IMG/VR virus record: IMGVR_UViG_3300001373_000069
DNA length: 19,030 nucleotides
Direction: 5' to 3' (one strand)
Origin: a virus
Taxonomy: Duplodnaviria > Heunggongvirae > Uroviricota > Caudoviricetes
This document shows positions 3,770 through 19,029 of the stretch, one piece after another. A model generated the notes under the pieces. The model saw only the letters and a program-made list of their open reading frames with translations, was not told the origin of the DNA and ran no database searches. The position numbers and the translations under genes are program-made. Every line of letters begins with the position of its first letter. Position 1 is the stretch's first letter.

Positions 3770-6272
3770 AACCACATTCTTTACATTGTTTACACCCACC
3801 TTCCATATGCATCTCAGATCCACAGTTAGGGCATGCTGATACACCACCATCGATATCCGGTATGTATCTTTTCAATTGTCTTGCAATAACTTTACTAATA
3901 TGAACTACAGATCCCTCAGACTTGTTTAGCTGTTCAACAACGAATTGTATAGCAGCACCATGTCTTAAGGCAGTAGATATCAGTCTCATAACAAATCCCC
4001 ATTCTGGAGTTTCAAATTTGGAAGTAATATCCTCGATTAACAAATGCCCAGATGTGTCTAGTAAGTTATACACACCGCTTTTCTGTTTTCGTAAAATACC
4101 AGTCTCTATCTTCGAGGATAGTATTGTGTCTCCACGTTTAAAGGCCATAGCTTCGAATGGTTTATCATCGAATAATCCTACCAGTACGATATACTTTTCA
4201 CCAGAAATTGTTGGTTGGAAAATATCACACTTCAGATCTTTAGGTCTTTTAGGCGCATCACGCTGTTCAAACTTACTAGAACTATTTACTACTGAATTCA
4301 ATACTCCGGCACGACTTCCGTCTCGGTAGATAGTTATACCTTTACAACCTGATTTCCAGGCTTTCATGTATAGGTCACCAACTACTTTCTCAGTTGTTGT
4401 AGTGGGCAGATTTGTTGTATTACTTATGCTATGGTCTATCCATTTCTGAACCATACCTATCATCTTGATTTTAACAACAGGGTCAATATCAGCAGAAGAT
4501 GATTTAGCATACGGGGATTCCTCAACCAAAGCAGCTATTATATCGTCAGATAAATCTTCTGGTTCTATTTCAGGATATTTGGTACCTATCCACTCCTTAA
4601 AATAAGGGTGAAATACTGGAAATTCTTCCCAAGAGTCGCCTTGATCATCTACAAAATCAACTTTAGAATGAGTATCGTTAGGATTAACCTTACGACTACG
4701 TTTATAAACCGGCATAAAAACTGGTTCAATTCCGCTAGTTTGATTATTCATAATAATTGACATAGTACCAACTGGTGGTATAGTCAACAATGCAATGTTA
4801 CGGCGCGGGATTCCGGCTTTACCAATACGGTTTAGGAACGGATTACCACGCTCGAGTGATGCATTAAATGCAGGAAATGTACCTCGTTTAGTGGCCAGTA
4901 CATAAGAAGCCTCATAGACTTTCTCTGCAAACTGTTGATGAATTCTCGCCAGATAGTCAGTACTATACTCGGTACCGTACTGCATTCCCAACATAGCTAG
5001 CATGTCACCATGACCAATGATTGAGATACCAGCACGTCGGCCCTTTTCAGTATTAATGCGGATATTATTCCACATATCAAGTTCAGTCCATTTAGTGTCG
5101 ATGTTCTCTGGATCAGCTTTGATCTTGTCGATGATCTGATTGATCTTTTTGATCTCAAGTTCAATGATGTTATCCATCATATGCGTAACCATAGCAGACA
5201 TTTTATCAAACAATTCATTGTCGAACCGGGCCACATCTTGAAATCTATTGATTACCATCTTAACCAGATTAACTGAAATTAGACGACAGCTATCGTAAGG
5301 ACTTAGAGGAATTTCTCCACACGGGTTAGTAGATACGGTAGTAAACCCACTTTTAGCATAGCAATCTGGTACTGACTCACGAATGATGGTGTCCCAGAAC
5401 AATGCTCCTGGTTCAGCAGAAGACCAATTAGCTTTAATTAAAGCATTCCATACCGGTTTAGCTTTAACTTTCCTAACATACACCGGTTTATCGTTATACA
5501 TTAGAGTTGTTAGTTTGTCCAGAATCAAACCATCCATATCAATACCTAGATTACTAACATCGAACTCACATGGAAAATGTTGTAGATAATACCCATCAGC
5601 ATCAACAGCCTGCATGAATTTATCAGACAGTCTAACGGAAACATTAGCACCGGTAACTTTACCAGTGTCCAGTTTCATGTTTATGAATTCCAGTACATCA
5701 GGATGGACAACATGTATGGATAACATTAAAGCTCCACGACGACCGTCTTGGGCCACTTCTCTAGAACTATTACTAAACCGTTCACAGAAAGATACTACAC
5801 CGGAACTAGTTCCAGCACTATTACTTACCGTGGTGGTTTTTGGTCGAAGATGACTCACATCAACTCCAACTCCCCCTCTACGTTTAGCTATTTGCACTAT
5901 CTCCTGATCTGTTTTTAGAATAGATCCGTAGCTATCCTCGTCATTACCAGAGATAACAAAACAATTACCTAAGGACGTTACAGAATACGGATTAGCTATG
6001 CCATATAAAGCAGAGCCTCCGGGGCTGATTACCTGATTTGAGAGAGCCTCGTAGTATTGATCTTCAGTGTAAGTTGTATCCCCTAAAGCAATATCTACAG
6101 AATGGATCTCTTTTGCAATTGCACTAAATCTATCTAATGGAGAGGCCTCAACAAACTCACCTTCTTTGTTTTTTAAACAATATTTGTTCATCCATACTTT
6201 TACAGCTAATTCATCGCCACGAAAGAACTTTAAACAATTTTTCTTTACTTCTTCATTTGTAAATACAGTCAT
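3753..6272 (-). CDS. nrdJ: Class II adenosylcobalamin-dependent ribonucleotide reductase with C-terminal TSCPD-like and Zn-ribbon regions
   Basis: Bacteroidota NrdJ-like N-terminus (FFRGDELAVKVWMNKY), SLGNCFV, GRRGALM, AEPG, TNPCGEIPL, PPVGT.S, QKWIDHSISNTTNLP, KGITIYRDGSR, and C-terminal CPNC..CKQCKEC. No NrdB in the window. Start set at ATG 6272. Confidence 0.92.
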   Translation of the reverse strand: MTVFTNEEVKKNCLKFFRGDELAVKVWMNKYCLKNKEGEFVEASPLDRFSAIAKEIHSVDIALGDTTYTEDQYYEALSNQVISPGGSALYGIANPYSVTSLGNCFVISGNDEDSYGSILKTDQEIVQIAKRRGGVGVDVSHLRPKTTTVSNSAGTSSGVVSFCERFSNSSREVAQDGRRGALMLSIHVVHPDVLEFINMKLDTGKVTGANVSVRLSDKFMQAVDADGYYLQHFPCEFDVSNLGIDMDGLILDKLTTLMYNDKPVYVRKVKAKPVWNALIKANWSSAEPGALFWDTIIRESVPDCYAKSGFTTVSTNPCGEIPLSPYDSCRLISVNLVKMVINRFQDVARFDNELFDKMSAMVTHMMDNIIELEIKKINQIIDKIKADPENIDTKWTELDMWNNIRINTEKGRRAGISIIGHGDMLAMLGMQYGTEYSTDYLARIHQQFAEKVYEASYVLATKRGTFPAFNASLERGNPFLNRIGKAGIPRRNIALLTIPPVGTMSIIMNNQTSGIEPVFMPVYKRSRKVNPNDTHSKVDFVDDQGDSWEEFPVFHPYFKEWIGTKYPEIEPEDLSDDIIAALVEESPYAKSSSADIDPVVKIKMIGMVQKWIDHSISNTTNLPTTTTEKVVGDLYMKAWKSGCKGITIYRDGSRAGVLNSVVNSSSKFEQRDAPKRPKDLKCDIFQPTISGEKYIVLVGLFDDKPFEAMAFKRGDTILSSKIETGILRKQKSGVYNLLDTSGHLLIEDITSKFETPEWGFVMRLISTALRHGAAIQFVVEQLNKSEGSVVHISKVIARQLKRYIPDIDGGVSACPNCGSEMHMEGGCKQCKECGYGACG

Positions 6273-9925: not shown

Positions 9926-11549
9926 AATTAATCGGTGTATCAATTACCATAGGTAATCCATCGCGTTCTATTATCAGTAACCATCCAGATGTAGATCCAA
10001 GACCTAATCTATCAGCATAGTCATCTGTGGGAGCGAAAGCAGGACAGTGCATCTTGCGATAATTTGAATTATCGTCGTCTTTGCTTATAATACGAGAATG
10101 CCAATGACCCTCTAAGATCAGATTGAACATATCCTGTTTACCATATTTCCAAACAATTTTATCTGCAGACTTCTTGTCAAGTCCTTGATCTCCATGAAGA
10201 TTGATAAATTGTAGATTACCATTACTAAACACAGTTCTATGACTAGTATGAATTATTTCAACACTAGGCATGCTATTAGCTAACATATAGAACAATAGTT
10301 TAGACCCCTCATTGGTGTCTTCTAGTTCTTTATCCGGTTGTAACCGGTCATGATTACCACTTACCGAAGTAACTGTTACCAGATTATTAATACTACCGAG
10401 AAACTTGTATAGAATCTCAAATGGTTTGATAATTGAATTAGCTCCCCAGGCACCTTGTTCTATGGTTTTCCACATTCCTGCATGATTAGTACCAGTAACA
10501 GTATGTATAGTATCACCAAGGAAAGAAACGATAACCTTCTTACCTCCGACGGCATTGATATCTTTAGCTACCTGATTAAGTTTTTGTTCTGCAATATTGT
10601 AATTGAATACCGGTAGTAACAAACCTAAATGTAAATCAGTAATAACCACATTCACGTATTCAGGAGAATCGTTGCTTACTGTTACTGCCGGTTTTGCAGG
10701 TAACGTAATATTCAATGCTTTAATACCCTCAGCAATCTCAGTCATAAAAGAATCGTGACGCAGGTTCTTGTTAGAATACTCCACGTAGGCTTTCTTATAC
10801 GCCTTAATCACTGCTTCTAAGGCAGCTGAATCGGTTTCTTTTACAACATCCAGTAAAGATGTAGCATTAGCTACTGTTACGGCATAGATATCTTCACGTT
10901 CCATATACTCATCGGTAAATGGTCCAAATGGTTCGGAGTCTTTAGTTAGATTAAGTTTAGTCATTATTGCGGATAACTCATTTACAGACAACTTTAAATT
11001 ACTCATTATCTGAGTTTTAGTAAGGTTTAATCCCTTACGCGAATATGCACAGAATACCCTATCAACCAACTCTACATCGAATAAGTAATCGACTTTTGAA
11101 ATGGTTAATTTATATTTGAGGTTCTTAACCTCATAGGTGTCAGTAGTCACTTCTTCGTTCTGTACAGCAAAGTAGACTGGTTTTACGATGTCTGGAAAAA
11201 CTTCTTCTTCTTCCTCTTCTTCCTCAAGTGGGTCGATTTCTTCCTCTTCCTCAAGATCATCATCGGAAACACTGATAGCCATTTCAAGAGCTGCTGAGTA
11301 TTCAGGAGAATGTTCTACCTCTAATTTGTTGATCGGTTCTTCTGGGAGATCAAGAGAGTCGCGTAATTCTGTAATGTCCTCTTCATAGGCAACCTCTGCT
11401 TTAATATCCCCAATAAACCCACGCAGTGTGCGGTGAGATTTACCTGTAATAGCTTGATCTTCAAGTATCTTATCAGCCAAACTAGTATTATTTACACCTG
11501 GATTTTCTACAACGTAATCTCTTATAATATCTCGAATATATTGCTTCAT
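9909..11549 (-). CDS. Multi-domain metallophosphoesterase (N-terminal helical/HTH-like region, acidic linker, C-terminal calcineurin-like domain)
   Basis: C-terminal TDLHLG, LGDTIH, SGNHDR, LHGD and GHWH motifs; long non-catalytic N-terminal half. Confidence 0.85.
   Translation of the reverse strand: MKQYIRDIIRDYVVENPGVNNTSLADKILEDQAITGKSHRTLRGFIGDIKAEVAYEEDITELRDSLDLPEEPINKLEVEHSPEYSAALEMAISVSDDDLEEEEEIDPLEEEEEEEEVFPDIVKPVYFAVQNEEVTTDTYEVKNLKYKLTISKVDYLFDVELVDRVFCAYSRKGLNLTKTQIMSNLKLSVNELSAIMTKLNLTKDSEPFGPFTDEYMEREDIYAVTVANATSLLDVVKETDSAALEAVIKAYKKAYVEYSNKNLRHDSFMTEIAEGIKALNITLPAKPAVTVSNDSPEYVNVVITDLHLGLLLPVFNYNIAEQKLNQVAKDINAVGGKKVIVSFLGDTIHTVTGTNHAGMWKTIEQGAWGANSIIKPFEILYKFLGSINNLVTVTSVSGNHDRLQPDKELEDTNEGSKLLFYMLANSMPSVEIIHTSHRTVFSNGNLQFINLHGDQGLDKKSADKIVWKYGKQDMFNLILEGHWHSRIISKDDDNSNYRKMHCPAFAPTDDYADRLGLGSTSGWLLIIERDGLPMVIDTPINYGRIV
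11201..11265 (-). repeat. Low-complexity GAA/GAG tract encoding DDDLEEEEEIDPLEEEEEEEEV
   Basis: Two copies of CTTGAGGAAGA plus GAA triplets on the minus strand, in frame within the 546 aa ORF. Confidence 0.8.
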
Positions 11550-12670
11550 TATGATGCTAATTTCTCAATAATTAACCTGATAATTTCAGGTCTATCTGTT
11601 TTAAATAGTGATTCCTCGAGTTCGGGGAACATAGTTTTTACTAAAGCCAAACCAGCTTCGACATCATGATGTTTAATGTAATCACTAATATCTTTATCTA
11701 GTACTTTCTGCTTTCCGTTTATTAGTACTTGATCCTGACTTATCCATCGTATTATAAGTCCATATTGTTCTAGTCTAATAGCAGCCTCAATTCCGGCTGG
11801 GTCATAATCCATAACAACGTAGATGGTTTTATATTTGGTTTTAAATTCATTAATAAGGTGTTCTGGGAAATGCCAGGTTTCGCTCTGCGGTGCAATACAA
11901 TCACACTTTATCAGAGAATAGAAACACATAACATCCTTCAAACTCTTAGTGATAATGAGTGTATCGTTACCTTCTAACTGTTCTTGTCCGAGGATATAAT
12001 GAGCTGGACAAGTGTTTCTCCACTTAAACTCATCTTCTTCCGGACAATAAAGTTTAACCTTATCATAAACCACATACACAAATGCTAACTCGGTTCTTTT
12101 AAATTCATATTTTATAGAATAATCTTCACCAAGTAAATACTGCACGCTTCTTACATTGAACTTCTTAAGAATACTTTCATCGATTCCAAATCGAGCCCAC
12201 CATAGAATGTCTCTACGAGTAAACTCTCTTGATTTGAATAATATCTCTTTCTTTTCTCTAGCTGCTTCAAGGTCAATTTCGCGTCTTGTATGTGTTTGTT
12301 TTTCAGTACCAAATATACCCAGTCCTAACTCTGTATCTAGATACTTGATGATATCAAGTCTGGTTTCCAGAGTTATGTTATGATGAAATAGTGCAAATCT
12401 TTGTACAAATGAAAATACGTCTCCATATCCACCTGCAAAATCTTTCCACCACACCTCATCTGGTCTTACATCTCTTTTTGTTTCAGTGGGTACATATAAA
12501 GAAAATGAGGCTCTCGTATCATCATCCCGTAAAGGACTGCTGATAGATTGCCCCATCTCTAAATCAATACCCAATAACTCACAATAAATATCAAAGTCAG
12601 TAATTTCGTCGAGTAGTTTATCAGTTAAAGTTTTTTTACTGGAAACATATTTACGAAATAAATTTGACAT
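11549..12670 (-). CDS. dnaG: DNA primase (DnaG-like TOPRIM, crAss-like type)
   Basis: N-terminal SPLR.D...SF...WKDF.G..GD domain; IITKSLKDV, MDYDPAG (DxD) and KDISD TOPRIM motifs. Confidence 0.85.
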   Translation of the reverse strand: MSNLFRKYVSSKKTLTDKLLDEITDFDIYCELLGIDLEMGQSISSPLRDDDTRASFSLYVPTETKRDVRPDEVWWKDFAGGYGDVFSFVQRFALFHHNITLETRLDIIKYLDTELGLGIFGTEKQTHTRREIDLEAAREKKEILFKSREFTRRDILWWARFGIDESILKKFNVRSVQYLLGEDYSIKYEFKRTELAFVYVVYDKVKLYCPEEDEFKWRNTCPAHYILGQEQLEGNDTLIITKSLKDVMCFYSLIKCDCIAPQSETWHFPEHLINEFKTKYKTIYVVMDYDPAGIEAAIRLEQYGLIIRWISQDQVLINGKQKVLDKDISDYIKHHDVEAGLALVKTMFPELEESLFKTDRPEIIRLIIEKLAS

Positions 12671-12678
12671 ATAAATAA

Positions 12679-12975
12679 TTAAGGTATAGTAACACTATTT
12701 AGAGTAGATATTAGCATATCAGCGTCTTTTACTGCCTTATAAGCTAATTCATCCTCTGGTGTATTTTCAAACGAAGGCGATGATATCAATGTTGAAAAGA
12801 TTGTCATAGCCATAATCTCCCTTTTAGTTAATGGTAACTTTTGTGAGGAGTCACCATTTTCTGGGTAAGTGAAATGCAATGTAATATCTCGAGCTACCCC
12901 ATTAGCATCCATATAGGAGCCGGATACTTCGGTTATTAATGCACTATTAGCCGGATCGGTAGCTACTGTTAACAT
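12679..12975 (-). CDS. Small phage protein with LTKRE...A...AV..AD.L motif
   Basis: C-terminal LTKREIMAM...ELAYKAVKDADMLI resembles a widespread small phage protein family of unknown function; TAATG overlap with the upstream gene. Confidence 0.7.
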   Translation of the reverse strand: MLTVATDPANSALITEVSGSYMDANGVARDITLHFTYPENGDSSQKLPLTKREIMAMTIFSTLISSPSFENTPEDELAYKAVKDADMLISTLNSVTIP

Positions 12976-13676
12976 TAGATAGAATCAAATGTTGGAGCAG
13001 AAACTCGTTTTTCACCTGGCTCCGGAGCCGATCCTACTCTATCAGGTTCAGCCTGTGTAGGTCTAGTTTCGTTTTGTGCTGCATCAAAGATCTCTTTTTC
13101 TTTAACAGTTACTACAGGTAAATCCTGGTCAGAGTCCATAGGAAGAATCCAATTGGTTTCTTTACCAAATTCAAGGAAACCTTTTTTATTTGAAGTCATT
13201 TTACACTGCAGTAAAGGACTAGCATCACCAGTTTTACCATCAATGGCTGTCTTAAATGCATCACGAAGAGCATCCTGTATCACTTTAGCACCCTTTTTGG
13301 TAGATAGGTGTTGTTTTGTGATAACACCATCTTCGATACCAGTAGCATCGATGAAATCACCTACAAACTGTTCCAGGTCACCACCTAAAGCATCCACAAG
13401 GAATACCATAGTTGTAAATTGGTCGTCGTAGTTTAGTAATACGAAATCACTGGTAGGGTCAAGATCCCAGAAGCTTCCTTCGAATTTAGCCTTAACTTCA
13501 CGAGTTATTGGGTCTACTTGCTGTAAAGTAATAAAAGTATTGGCACGTATAGCAGCCTCTTTACCTTTTCTCTCTTCGTAGTCAACACCGGCTACAATAA
13601 TATTATAATTATGTCCAAACGAAAGCGATGCTCTCACTGGTTTAGACTCTACATACTGTCTGAATAAATTACTCAT
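12975..13676 (-). CDS. Hypothetical protein, paralog A (possible ssDNA-binding/replication protein)
   Basis: 233 aa ORF aligning by eye with the 13693-14349 product; low-complexity C-terminal tail ending PTFDSI; N-terminus shared with the primase. Function is inference. Confidence 0.75.
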   Translation of the reverse strand: MSNLFRQYVESKPVRASLSFGHNYNIIVAGVDYEERKGKEAAIRANTFITLQQVDPITREVKAKFEGSFWDLDPTSDFVLLNYDDQFTTMVFLVDALGGDLEQFVGDFIDATGIEDGVITKQHLSTKKGAKVIQDALRDAFKTAIDGKTGDASPLLQCKMTSNKKGFLEFGKETNWILPMDSDQDLPVVTVKEKEIFDAAQNETRPTQAEPDRVGSAPEPGEKRVSAPTFDSI

Positions 13677-13692
13677 GGTATAATATTAAGCA

Positions 13693-14349
13693 TTAAACAT
13701 TAGCGGCGGTTGCACCCAACTTAGCGGATACATTACCACTTTTAGCATGATTCTTTAACTCTGAGTTTGAAAACTTTAGAGTTGTTTCACCATCACCCAT
13801 TGGCTCGCATATTGTACCATATTTAGGTAATTCAACGATAGCACCTTTTGGATCTGTTGTTAATTTTAAGTGTAATAATTTACCTTCAATTCCAACATGA
13901 TCCTTGATGGCAGCACTAAAACAATCTTTTAAACTTGTCATTAGCGTTGTACAATCTTTAACTTTCCACTTATACTCTTTGATATCCTCAACAGTTTTGA
14001 ATTCAAACTCATCGAAGATATGATCAAAGAAAGTATCCACCACATCCTTAGACATATAACATTCCAGAATACCAACTAACTGAGAGCATAGCTCTAGCAT
14101 ATTGTCCTGAAAATACTTGTTACCGATTGGGTCAAGTTTCCACCAACTTACCTCTATATCGCGAAGTTTCTTTCTGGTTGTAGGGTCCACTTCAGCAAAA
14201 GTAATATACAAAAACTTCTTAGAAGGAGTGCCATTAGAACGCCTTTCTTCGGTATCTACCGAGGTTATTGTGATATTCGAATGAATACCCTTATCAAGTT
14301 TGGATACGTTTACTCTGGAAAGTAACGCTAGCACGTCTTTTCTTGCCAT
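13693..14349 (-). CDS. Hypothetical protein, paralog B
   Basis: 218 aa ORF sharing G...NI....VD.EER, IT...VDP.TR and E.S.W.LDP blocks with paralog A. Confidence 0.75.
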   Translation of the reverse strand: MARKDVLALLSRVNVSKLDKGIHSNITITSVDTEERRSNGTPSKKFLYITFAEVDPTTRKKLRDIEVSWWKLDPIGNKYFQDNMLELCSQLVGILECYMSKDVVDTFFDHIFDEFEFKTVEDIKEYKWKVKDCTTLMTSLKDCFSAAIKDHVGIEGKLLHLKLTTDPKGAIVELPKYGTICEPMGDGETTLKFSNSELKNHAKSGNVSAKLGATAANV

Positions 14350-14393: not shown

Positions 14394-15038
14394 TTAATCA
14401 TGGATTATTGTAATATCACCATCTTCCGTCAATTCGACGTCCATTTCATCTCCACCAAGGTCTCTAGCGACATCGTTCAGCTCCACATCGGAATACATTC
14501 CAAGAAGAACCTCAGGAAATAATGCCCTTACAGCATAGCTTAGACATCTTGCTCGCATCATCTCCTTTGGGTACTTAGACCAATTCTGTTTATCGGTATA
14601 ACCAGCAAGGGTCATTTGATTCCAGGTAATAGAGAATACGGTTTCGATAACTGTTCCAGTTACATTTGACTTCCAATAGAACTTGTAGGAAGTACGTTTA
14701 TCCGGTTTACCGTTAGGAGCATCGACTGTTACATAATCCTCGGCAATTACCCATTCTACACCATGTTTCTTTAGCATTGCGCCAAGCATAGACGAACTGA
14801 TTACAGGACGACCGGCTATAACGTGAATGTTATTTAACGCGATATGAGGGGTTAAACCAAGCTCTTTACCATGTTGTACGATAGTTATTACTTGTTCTGG
14901 TTCGGTGATACTACTTGGTAATAGTCCAGAGTTTATGATGGTATCGGCCCATCTTTTCATCTCGTCAATGTTAGAAAATCCAGTTAACTTAACTGGGGCA
15001 CTGTCGAGGGGTTTTATTGTTGCTAATTCTTTAGCCAT
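14394..15038 (-). CDS. RecT/Redbeta-like single-strand annealing protein
   Basis: G.ELGL.P..AL.NI.VI.GRP and W.KYP..M.R.R.L..A.R..FP.VL.G.Y motifs; acidic C-terminus. Confidence 0.8.
   Translation of the reverse strand: MAKELATIKPLDSAPVKLTGFSNIDEMKRWADTIINSGLLPSSITEPEQVITIVQHGKELGLTPHIALNNIHVIAGRPVISSSMLGAMLKKHGVEWVIAEDYVTVDAPNGKPDKRTSYKFYWKSNVTGTVIETVFSITWNQMTLAGYTDKQNWSKYPKEMMRARCLSYAVRALFPEVLLGMYSDVELNDVARDLGGDEMDVELTEDGDITIIHD

Positions 15039-15385: not shown

Positions 15386-15393
<8 letters not shown>
15100..15393 (-). CDS. Hypothetical protein (97 aa)
   Basis: Likely start MSDFF at 15393, overlapping the DnaB-like stop by 8 nt; contains IRIEALDYGYLVKVGCQT.AIE. Confidence 0.68.
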
Positions 15394-17750
<2,357 letters not shown>

Positions 17751-17751
17751 C

Positions 17752-19029
17752 TTATTTAGTCCATTTGGTTAATACTTTAGTATCTACACCAAGCAAACCT
17801 TTACCGAGAAATAATTCACCGGCCTCGATCATACACTTCTCCTGAAGAGCTACCAATGTTTCCTGATCATCTTTATGACAAGATGACAGTATTTCATCAT
17901 GAACTGGTAGGTGCAGCTTGGCTCTTAGCCCAGTACTTTTTATCTGTTTAGATAATTCGCAAAGTGCTATCTTTAAGATAGTTGCGTTCGTCTCCTGGAT
18001 TGGGTAGTTCTTCCCTTCTCTTCCGATAGCCTCACGTTCACCTTGATTCTCTGGCTCTGCAAAGAATCTTATTCTACCTGTAGGCATCAAACTCCTTACA
18101 AACATATTCTGCATAGCTGAATTACCAGTACTATCAAACAATATTCTGAGTTTAGGAAAAACCACAAAGAATTGATTAATAAGTGCTTTGGCTTCATCTT
18201 TAGGAATATCTAAGCGTTCGGCTAAGCCGTGGTATGTTAAACCGTAAGCAAGACCAAAACTAATTGCTTTAGATTTCTTTCTAAGCTTCAAATGCTCAGG
18301 GCATGTACATTGAGATCCATCAACCATCCAAGCACAATCAGGTTCAGCGGCACTAGTCCACTTATCACCAAAAATCAATGACGCAGACATGCAATGCAAA
18401 TCCCTTTTATCTCTTATAGCATCTAGGAAAGCTTCTTCTCCGGCAGCATATGACATAATCACAAGTTCAGCTGATGAGAAGTCAGAATCCACAAACACAT
18501 CATCTTCACCTGGAGGTAAGAAAGCATTCCTAAACCGTGGTTCTGATGGTATCTGCAACAAAATTCCAAAGGCTATTCTGCCGGTATTTAAAATTTGAGA
18601 GCAGTTATTAGGACATATCATACCATCTCGACGTACATACTTCTCTAGAAAGCTGGCTCCGTACGAAGTTACCCTCTTTTGAGCTGATACATACTTCTTG
18701 AAATGTGTAATGATTTCGTTCTTGGTGATTCGATTTAGGCTTTTCGAATTAGTATCAACTAAGTTAGGGTAGTAGAAAGTAAAGATAGCTAATTTGTGGG
18801 GATTGGAATTCCAATTTATCATAACAGTACCCTTAGGTACATATAGTCCGCATTCTATTAACCAATCTCTATGCTGAGACACAAGGATGTCATTTAACGA
18901 GTCGTAGTCTCTATCCATATAATAATTGATATAATCAATCTCATTCATGGTTAGGGTATCTTCGTTATCTTTAAACCACTTTTTAATCGTTGGTTTGGTA
19001 GTACAATCAGCAGGAAGACTAGGTACTAA
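17752..19029 (-). CDS. polA: Family A DNA polymerase, C-terminal polymerase domain (5' partial)
   Basis: Motif A DSDFSSAEL, motif B RKKSKAISFGLAYG (Phe at the E. coli 762 position), NYPIQ and motif C VHDEI. The frame stays open upstream of the track ATG (18948) to the window edge (LVPSLPADCTTKPTIKKWFKDNEDTLT-M). Confidence 0.95.
   Translation of the reverse strand, partial: LVPSLPADCTTKPTIKKWFKDNEDTLTMNEIDYINYYMDRDYDSLNDILVSQHRDWLIECGLYVPKGTVMINWNSNPHKLAIFTFYYPNLVDTNSKSLNRITKNEIITHFKKYVSAQKRVTSYGASFLEKYVRRDGMICPNNCSQILNTGRIAFGILLQIPSEPRFRNAFLPPGEDDVFVDSDFSSAELVIMSYAAGEEAFLDAIRDKRDLHCMSASLIFGDKWTSAAEPDCAWMVDGSQCTCPEHLKLRKKSKAISFGLAYGLTYHGLAERLDIPKDEAKALINQFFVVFPKLRILFDSTGNSAMQNMFVRSLMPTGRIRFFAEPENQGEREAIGREGKNYPIQETNATILKIALCELSKQIKSTGLRAKLHLPVHDEILSSCHKDDQETLVALQEKCMIEAGELFLGKGLLGVDTKVLTKWTK

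Follow-up and report, generated by a model that had tools for sequence, protein, structure and literature searches.

The window analysed here is a stretch of 19,030 nucleotides (nt) from a Caudoviricetes record in IMG/VR (IMGVR_UViG_3300001373_000069), on which all coordinates are given, and our subject is a short N-terminal peptide, or arm, found there on two otherwise unrelated proteins: a DnaG/Toprim-type primase and a protein that we refer to as paralog A, or A, which resembles single-stranded DNA-binding (SSB) proteins. Every gene in the window lies on the minus strand, and together they form a phage replication and recombination module. No close DNA relative of the region was found by megablast against a phage collection; the same module is present on two IMG/VR contigs at about 80% protein identity, one of which is a complete 175-kb genome with terminal repeats. 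The features that concern the arm directly are the following.

12975-13676, minus strand: paralog A, an SSB-like protein of 233 residues with a predicted oligonucleotide/oligosaccharide-binding (OB) fold, assigned from fold and gene context
13641-13676, minus strand: N-terminal arm of A, MSNLFRQYVESK, from the translation
12978-13061, minus strand: C-terminal tail of A (residues 206-233), predicted to be disordered from model confidence, with a hydrophobic tip
13693-14349, minus strand: paralog B, a second SSB-like protein, 28% identical to A and with a different N-terminus, MARKDVLALLSR
11549-12670, minus strand: DnaG/Toprim-type primase of 373 residues, assigned from PHROG 12622
12635-12670, minus strand: N-terminal arm of the primase, MSNLFRKYVSSK, from the translation

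The two starts have the consensus MSNLFR.YV.SK. A first-pass annotation of this DNA had described them as near-identical, and this is what a BLASTP comparison of the primase with A returns: its sole match consists of these 12 residues, 10 of them identical (E 0.001, in a single comparison), with no similarity between the two proteins beyond this N-terminus. A degenerate DNA pattern for M-S-N-L-F occurs twice in the window, both times at these starts, against 0.04 occurrences expected from shuffled sequences. The two coding segments are identical at 22 of 36 bases, and the codons of the two genes differ, as had been listed, at Ser2 (AGT/TCA), Phe (TTC/TTT), Arg (AGA/CGT), Val (GTA/GTT) and Ser11 (TCT/AGT); their Ser and Arg codon classes are not interconvertible by one base change. 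Both gene starts, which the first-pass annotation had asked to see checked, are sound, each being the first ATG after an in-frame stop, with the previous gene ending 8 and 16 nt before and with the N-terminus conserved in homologues. The peptide is kept at the protein level in more than 100 homologues, with synonymous changes among them, and in the arm of the window residues L4, F5, Y8 and V9 do fall on one helical face. Paralog B is related to A (E 1e-14) and, as described earlier, starts without the matching peptide; no second carrier of its own N-terminus was found among the proteins of the 175-kb relative.

When the genes for A and the primase were paired on the same contigs, the arm was found to be kept in both families down to 30-40% identity, with a sequence that is specific to each clade and alike in the two proteins of each genome. 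The two arms match in at least 30 genomes, crAss-like phages included, and the motif is indeed retained in orthologues of both proteins, the other check that had been named. Examples are listed below, with A first and the primase second.

L022: MNLYKELIES, MNLYKELIQS
L026: MSNIFKDFVLA, MKNIFRDFVLS
L028: NVFKDF, NVFKDF
L122: NLTNVFLET, NLTKIFLQT
L123: MNLFVQLSEAG, MNLFCKLSEEG
L034: AFLRKLL, PFLRELL
L040 (crAss-like): MYSTKTATT, MYSTKTAIT
L046 (crAss-like): MYSSSRAKK, MYDSKRIKK
L089 (crAss-like): MYNKELAK, MYDKEKAK
L095 (crAss-like): MYSTKNAVK, MFSTKTAVR

The crAss-like loci are identified by primases that are 85-95% identical to those of Crassvirales reference genomes. The arm lies mostly at the extreme N-terminus, though 9-30 residues stand ahead of it in L028, P0164 and P0168 if the starts of the open reading frames (ORFs) are taken as called. 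In one clade (L056, L059 and L072) the arm is absent from both proteins: A starts with its core, and the primase has no extension.

The strength of this pairing was assessed in 36 genomes, dereplicated at less than 80% primase identity, using ungapped BLOSUM62 scores between arms. The null hypothesis was independent evolution after one ancient copying, under which the primase arm of the same genome should be no closer to that of A than the primase arms of other genomes. Arms of the same genome score 24.2 on average and arms of different genomes 13.3, and in 20000 permutations the observed value was never reached; the result is the same for the clade of the window alone (34.0 versus 23.2; 0 of 20000) and for the crAss-like clade alone (18.0 versus 13.3; 0 of 20000). 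Pseudo-replication was removed by taking 27 path-disjoint sister pairs from a primase tree built without the first 20 residues, in which the same-genome pairing wins 10 times and the cross pairing 3 times (by 1, 1 and 6 score units), with 14 ties (sign test, p = 0.046; Wilcoxon test, p = 0.0037). In an alignment of 154 members of the A family, the arm columns show their highest mutual information with core residues 157-193 (z 3-4.7), but these columns also mark the split between the A and B subfamilies, which may account for the signal.

The codons, together with this genome-by-genome co-variation, bear out the earlier argument that it is the peptide, and not the DNA, that is under selection. 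Across 167 identical aligned residues the codon is shared at 93, against 80.9 expected from the codon usage of each genome, which is close to random. Wherever A and the primase of a genome both have the conserved Ser, the distant L123 included, A encodes it by TCN and the primase by AGY; Arg is likewise divided between AGA and CGN in all genomes compared, and the Ser2 and Arg6 classes stay separate across the subclade of the window. As such classes have no single-step synonymous interconversion, the two segments have kept to lineages of their own all along, and their amino acids have undergone parallel changes. No motif is common to the 30-nt stretches ahead of the two genes, and this, with the separate codon classes and the near-random sharing of codons, excludes gene conversion, recent duplication and a shared RNA operator. 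The position of the genes, about 1 kb apart on the same strand, might have suggested a recent duplication, a conversion between their 5' ends or mere chance, but given the codon evidence, a pattern expected 0.04 times per window and the outcome of the permutations, this explanation is refuted for practical purposes. The similarity might also be an RNA or translation-initiation feature, the Bacteroidota being without Shine-Dalgarno sites and favouring A/U-rich starts, or might reflect a translational repressor that binds both mRNAs; no Shine-Dalgarno sequence stands ahead of the primase and A genes, and the arm codons are rich in A and T (AAT, TTA, TTT, AAA, TAT). This reading too is close to refuted, since base identity is limited to 22/36, the Ser and Arg codon classes are fixed for each gene across clades, codon sharing is near random, no upstream motif is shared, the arm is absent from other genes of the same genomes, and base composition is not expected to give position-specific co-variation of amino acids.

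All possible starts were scanned in the complete 175-kb relative and in three crAss-like genomes, and in these four genomes the arm is carried by the SSB-like protein and the primase only. In the 175-kb relative the two arms have scores of 60 and 59, and the runner-up among its 3006 starts reaches 29. Several candidates for a third carrier were considered and set aside: in the 175-kb relative, a 60-residue ORF with a TTG start (29) and an 84-residue ORF beginning MSNFFRPLVII (28) were taken as chance matches beside scores of 59-60; a segment of the crAss-like polymerase, M(L)YS.KLRVGLKE, begins at an internal Met of a longer ORF and is unchanged whatever the arm type; and the loosely arm-like N-termini of the DnaB-like and Mre11-like (MKQYIRDII) proteins each follow the consensus of their own family, with no visible co-variation.

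Two cultured phages show a similar arrangement, the second of them more tentatively. Flavobacterium phage FpV4 (L142) has, upstream of the primase gene, a hypothetical protein, gp56 (4124-4882), that starts MLKNIFAVNDTD, and a primase, gp55 (4938-5972), that starts MNKNVFTLDNAD, with a match score of 31 and the next at 18; FpV4 is thus a possible laboratory model for the arm. In Bacteroides phage crAss001 (L140), Gp81 (4036-4956), read from its second Met, begins MAVKVGKES and the primase Gp80 (4977-5972) begins MAISIGKPN. Of the 92 starts that the locus offers, this one matches best, with a score of 29 against 20 for the runner-up; perhaps Gp81 is annotated from a start that lies 8 codons too early, or perhaps its arm is internal. 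A profile hidden Markov model of the A family does not detect crAss001 Gp81, phi14:2 gp046 or FpV4 gp56, and the link of these three proteins to A is through gene position, with fold in addition for phi14:2.

The first-pass annotation had called the two paralogs proteins of unknown function, an assignment that fold and gene context now revise. The AlphaFold2 model of A has a predicted local distance difference test (pLDDT) score of 82.7, with a confident core at residues 15-205, whereas residues 4-13 fall below 50 and form a short helix (4-10) that is not packed on the body; at the C-terminus pLDDT is below 50 at 206-218 and 220-233. Compared with BFVD, the model matches crAss-like proteins (E 2e-7), DUF669 proteins (E 1.3e-3) and the 'SSB' of cr110_1 (E 3.7e-3). 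A wide search of the PDB, made independently of Foldseek, places OB-fold binders of single-stranded DNA on top, with middling Z scores for PrgE (6.7) and RPA (4.6), followed by others such as Cdc13, Teb1, LEF-3 and Rim1; Foldseek against the PDB gave nothing below E 0.001. Neither Pfam (E <= 0.01), including the DUF669 model PF05037, nor PHROGs gave a match for A or B, and DUF669 is found on 14% of the members of one Atlas neighbour cluster. Relatives of A numbered 25 by a word-based search and 169 by a profile search, and a locus search with A as the single query sequence found nothing. The gene for A always neighbours one for an annealing protein, RecT in the window and its clade or a Sak4-like protein in the crAss-like loci. 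Since the fold matches, the disordered tail, this neighbour and the precedent of a DUF669 SSB (PMC13687109) all point the same way, we read A and B as SSB-like proteins, which would bind single-stranded DNA. The C-terminal tip is kept across the A family (..TFDSI, ..SLDSI, ..FASL, ..LGGL), is hydrophobic and follows a disordered linker in which Pro and Glu are abundant; it has the look of a second docking peptide, with the adjacent annealing protein as a possible partner. Residues 12-21 of RecT (..DSAPVKLTGF) resemble the stretch of A that comes after the arm, ESKPVRASLSFG in the window and ESAPVKARLQFG in L022, which could be chance or a second shared element. In CrAssphage cr53_1 the SSB-like gene upstream of the primase, gp49 (L139, 3562-4191), is annotated as 'hypothetical protein'.

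The primase matches PHROG 12622, 'DNA primase' (E 2.9e-26), scores 18.2 bits against Pfam Toprim_2, under the cut-off of 22.1, is about 33% identical to annotated Crassvirales primases and has 636 homologues. By inspection, its residues 1-120 hold no CHC2 zinc ribbon, with one Cys (C30), adjacent His residues at 96 and 97 and no CxxC. Its AlphaFold2 model is confident overall (pLDDT 91), with a mean of 50 for residues 1-10 and a predicted helix at 4-11 that is unpacked from the body.

The remaining genes of the module, in downstream reading order and with the 98-residue ORF that separates A from the primase, are as follows.

17752-18948, minus strand: PolA ORF, the first in this order
no coordinates given, minus strand: protein of 251 residues without known function, between PolA and the exonuclease
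16462-16998, minus strand: Rv2179c-like exonuclease of 178 residues, a separate gene
15386-16465, minus strand: DnaB-like protein without the Walker A lysine
14394-15038, minus strand: RecT-like annealing protein (PHROG 561, E 9e-17; Pfam RecT, 23.4 bits)
12679-12975, minus strand: ORF of 98 residues without a family match, between A and the primase
downstream of the primase, minus strand, in this order: Mre11-like nuclease, ATP-dependent ligase, GroEL, Holliday junction resolvase and ribonucleotide reductase

The 98-residue ORF, which has no match in Pfam or PHROGs, is present in 11 loci. Of the genomes left after dereplication, only those in the subclade of the window (the window, L001 and L024) have it, and it also occurs in L002 and L030. 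The A and primase genes are directly adjacent in the other clades examined. Of PolA the window contains just the C-terminal part, and the PolA ORF comprises the polymerase domain only, with the exonuclease encoded by the separate 178-residue gene. L023, L024, L026 and L027 have a single exonuclease-polymerase protein of 720 residues and the PolA of L022 is likewise in pieces, which suggests that the polymerase gene of the window is split or interrupted.

Several known systems can be set beside the arm, and that of phage T7 comes closest. The C-terminal tip of bacterial SSB (..DDDIPF) is a hub peptide, in which one short sequence on a disordered end recruits several DNA enzymes; it differs from the arm in being C-terminal and acidic, with its receptors on the client enzymes, whereas here the copied peptide is an N-terminal arm. 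In phage T7 the acidic C-terminal tails of gp2.5, the SSB (PMC12339929), and gp4, the primase-helicase, bind basic patches of gp5, the polymerase (PMC12593628), so that similar short terminal peptides on an SSB and a priming enzyme are taken to dock on one receptor. Those tails are acidic, C-terminal and end in an aromatic residue, whereas the arm is N-terminal, net positive, hydrophobic and basic without an acidic run, predicted to form a short helix, and strongly different between clades while matched within each genome; by analogy it may work like the T7 tails without being a member of that system. Gp32 of T4 has an N-terminal arm of about 20 residues, an OB-fold core and a flexible C-terminal interaction tail, and its N-domain binds the core of the neighbouring subunit, giving cooperative binding (PMC12893549). 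Its LAST motif, K-R-K-S-T, does not occur in residues 1-20 of A, for whose arm a role in cooperativity is proposed. We know of no other T4 replisome protein that carries a copy of the gp32 arm. Gp63 of the 'Healer' pair, a DUF669 protein, has been demonstrated to be an SSB working together with a neighbouring AAA (Sak4-like) recombinase, and a contact between its residues 1-20 and the middle region of the following subunit is predicted (PMC13687109). It shares with A an OB fold, an annealing or recombinase neighbour and a flexible C-terminal region, and the model of A matches DUF669 proteins; A differs in lacking a Pfam DUF669 match, and PMC13687109 reports no primase with the same N-terminus. 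In the literature searched there is no description of an N-terminus common to a primase and an SSB.

In our judgement the best reading is that both N-termini are free docking arms that bind a common partner. The arm probably binds a protein of some kind, and the detached, low-confidence helix in both models would be typical of a peptide that folds on binding. As receptor we tentatively rank first, with a probability of roughly 0.45, the core of the SSB-like protein itself, which the first-pass annotation had not considered, because the arm is ancient and family-wide in SSB-like proteins and because of the gp32 precedent (PMC12893549) and the DUF669 prediction (PMC13687109); the partners that had been put forward, namely PolA, the inactive DnaB, the host clamp, GroEL and a membrane, gained no support. 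The arm of A would reach the core of the next SSB on single-stranded DNA, as in T4 gp32 and as predicted for the DUF669 SSB, and the primase, bearing a copy of the same arm, would plug into the same site and thereby be recruited to SSB-coated lagging-strand DNA. Under this proposal the two arms would change in step because both must fit one receptor surface as it drifts.

A number of points weigh against docking on the SSB core. The SSB-like proteins of L056, L059 and L072 are armless, an unexpected state if SSB cooperativity depended on the arm, and the arm match is weak in some crAss-like lineages (L036, L041, L106 and L111). The crAss-like arms, of the MYSTK type, are polar rather than amphipathic, and the binding mode may differ between clades. 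The A family is linked to DUF669 by fold only (E ~1e-3) and not by the Pfam model, and the contact between the N-terminal arm and the neighbouring subunit in the DUF669 SSB is itself a structure prediction for a very distant relative (PMC13687109). That the arm binds a partner at all, although probable, is also something that we infer. A complex prediction with the DnaB-like protein, the core of A (residues 14-205) and the primase arm (residues 1-34) scored 0.00, which is no answer and is evidence neither way.

The co-variation fits equally well with arms that dock on a third protein, whether the DnaB-like protein, the polymerase, a Dda-like helicase encoded elsewhere in the genome or a host protein, and a receptor of this sort, if doubtful in itself, is nearly as likely as the SSB core. 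Both in the clade of the window and in crAss-like phages, a DnaB-like gene is found upstream of the pair for the SSB-like protein and the primase, at a distance of a few genes. Bacterial DnaB has about 470 residues, and its N-terminal domain binds DnaG; the DnaB-like protein, at 326-406 residues, may be without that domain, in which case another contact with the primase would be needed. In the clade of the window all 12 of its orthologues read GxxxxG[TVIR][TS], and the absence of the Walker A lysine from every one of them makes this a conserved feature of the clade and not a defect of a single genome; the syntenic crAss-like counterpart reads GSGKSS and matches DnaB-like helicase PHROGs, and a profile search of the PDB for the DnaB-like family found nothing. 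T7 adds the precedent of an SSB and a primase-helicase with one receptor (PMC12593628). Against a third protein, no candidate is singled out, and a DnaB-like gene is present even in the armless L059. Rapid change specific to each clade would not be accounted for by a conserved host hub, the beta clamp for example, nor does the arm, which reads S-N-L-F-R in the window and is of the MYSTK type in crAss-like phages, fit the clamp-binding pattern QL[SD]LF. An improbable further reading takes the arm as a signal that acts outside the replisome, such as a tag for degradation by a protease, a signal for a chaperone (the phage GroEL) or a capsid-targeting sequence. Such systems do work through short N-terminal peptides common to unrelated proteins: lambda O carries a degradation tag of the ClpX N-motif type, and the internal proteins of T4 have a common N-terminal capsid-targeting peptide. 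The run N-L-F-R (polar, hydrophobic, hydrophobic, basic) resembles N-motif 1 of the ClpX motifs reportedly set out by Flynn et al. in 2003, and a GroEL gene lies in the same module. However, in L028, P0164 and P0168 the ORFs as called place the arm behind an extension, and with such starts a free N-terminus would not be needed; in the four genomes scanned the arm is confined to the SSB-like protein and the primase; crAss-like phages have the arm with no GroEL seen in their modules; and host protease pores are probably too conserved to drive clade-specific change.

Docking of both arms on a common partner would extend the principle of a shared docking peptide, as known from T7, to one that is N-terminal, non-acidic and fast-evolving, and would offer a clean natural example, visible from sequence alone, of two clients co-evolving with one receptor. 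Of the replication genes, only that of the primase is common to all Crassvirales, which outnumber other phages in the human gut (PMC10136315), and a peptide matched genome by genome on the primase and an SSB-like protein gives a concrete and cheap handle on the assembly of their replisome; it also suggests a function for gp49 of cr53_1, which this genome, the one reference checked, labels 'hypothetical protein'. It is possible, though we hold this loosely, that many Bacteroidota phages, Crassvirales among them, recruit their primase by arm mimicry: with its copy of the SSB's neighbour-binding arm, the primase would insert into or cap the lagging-strand SSB filament, and this would replace the bacterial contact between DnaG and DnaB. 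If so, the fast drift of arm and receptor would give each lineage a private address, which could also restrict how far co-infecting phages mix their replication modules.

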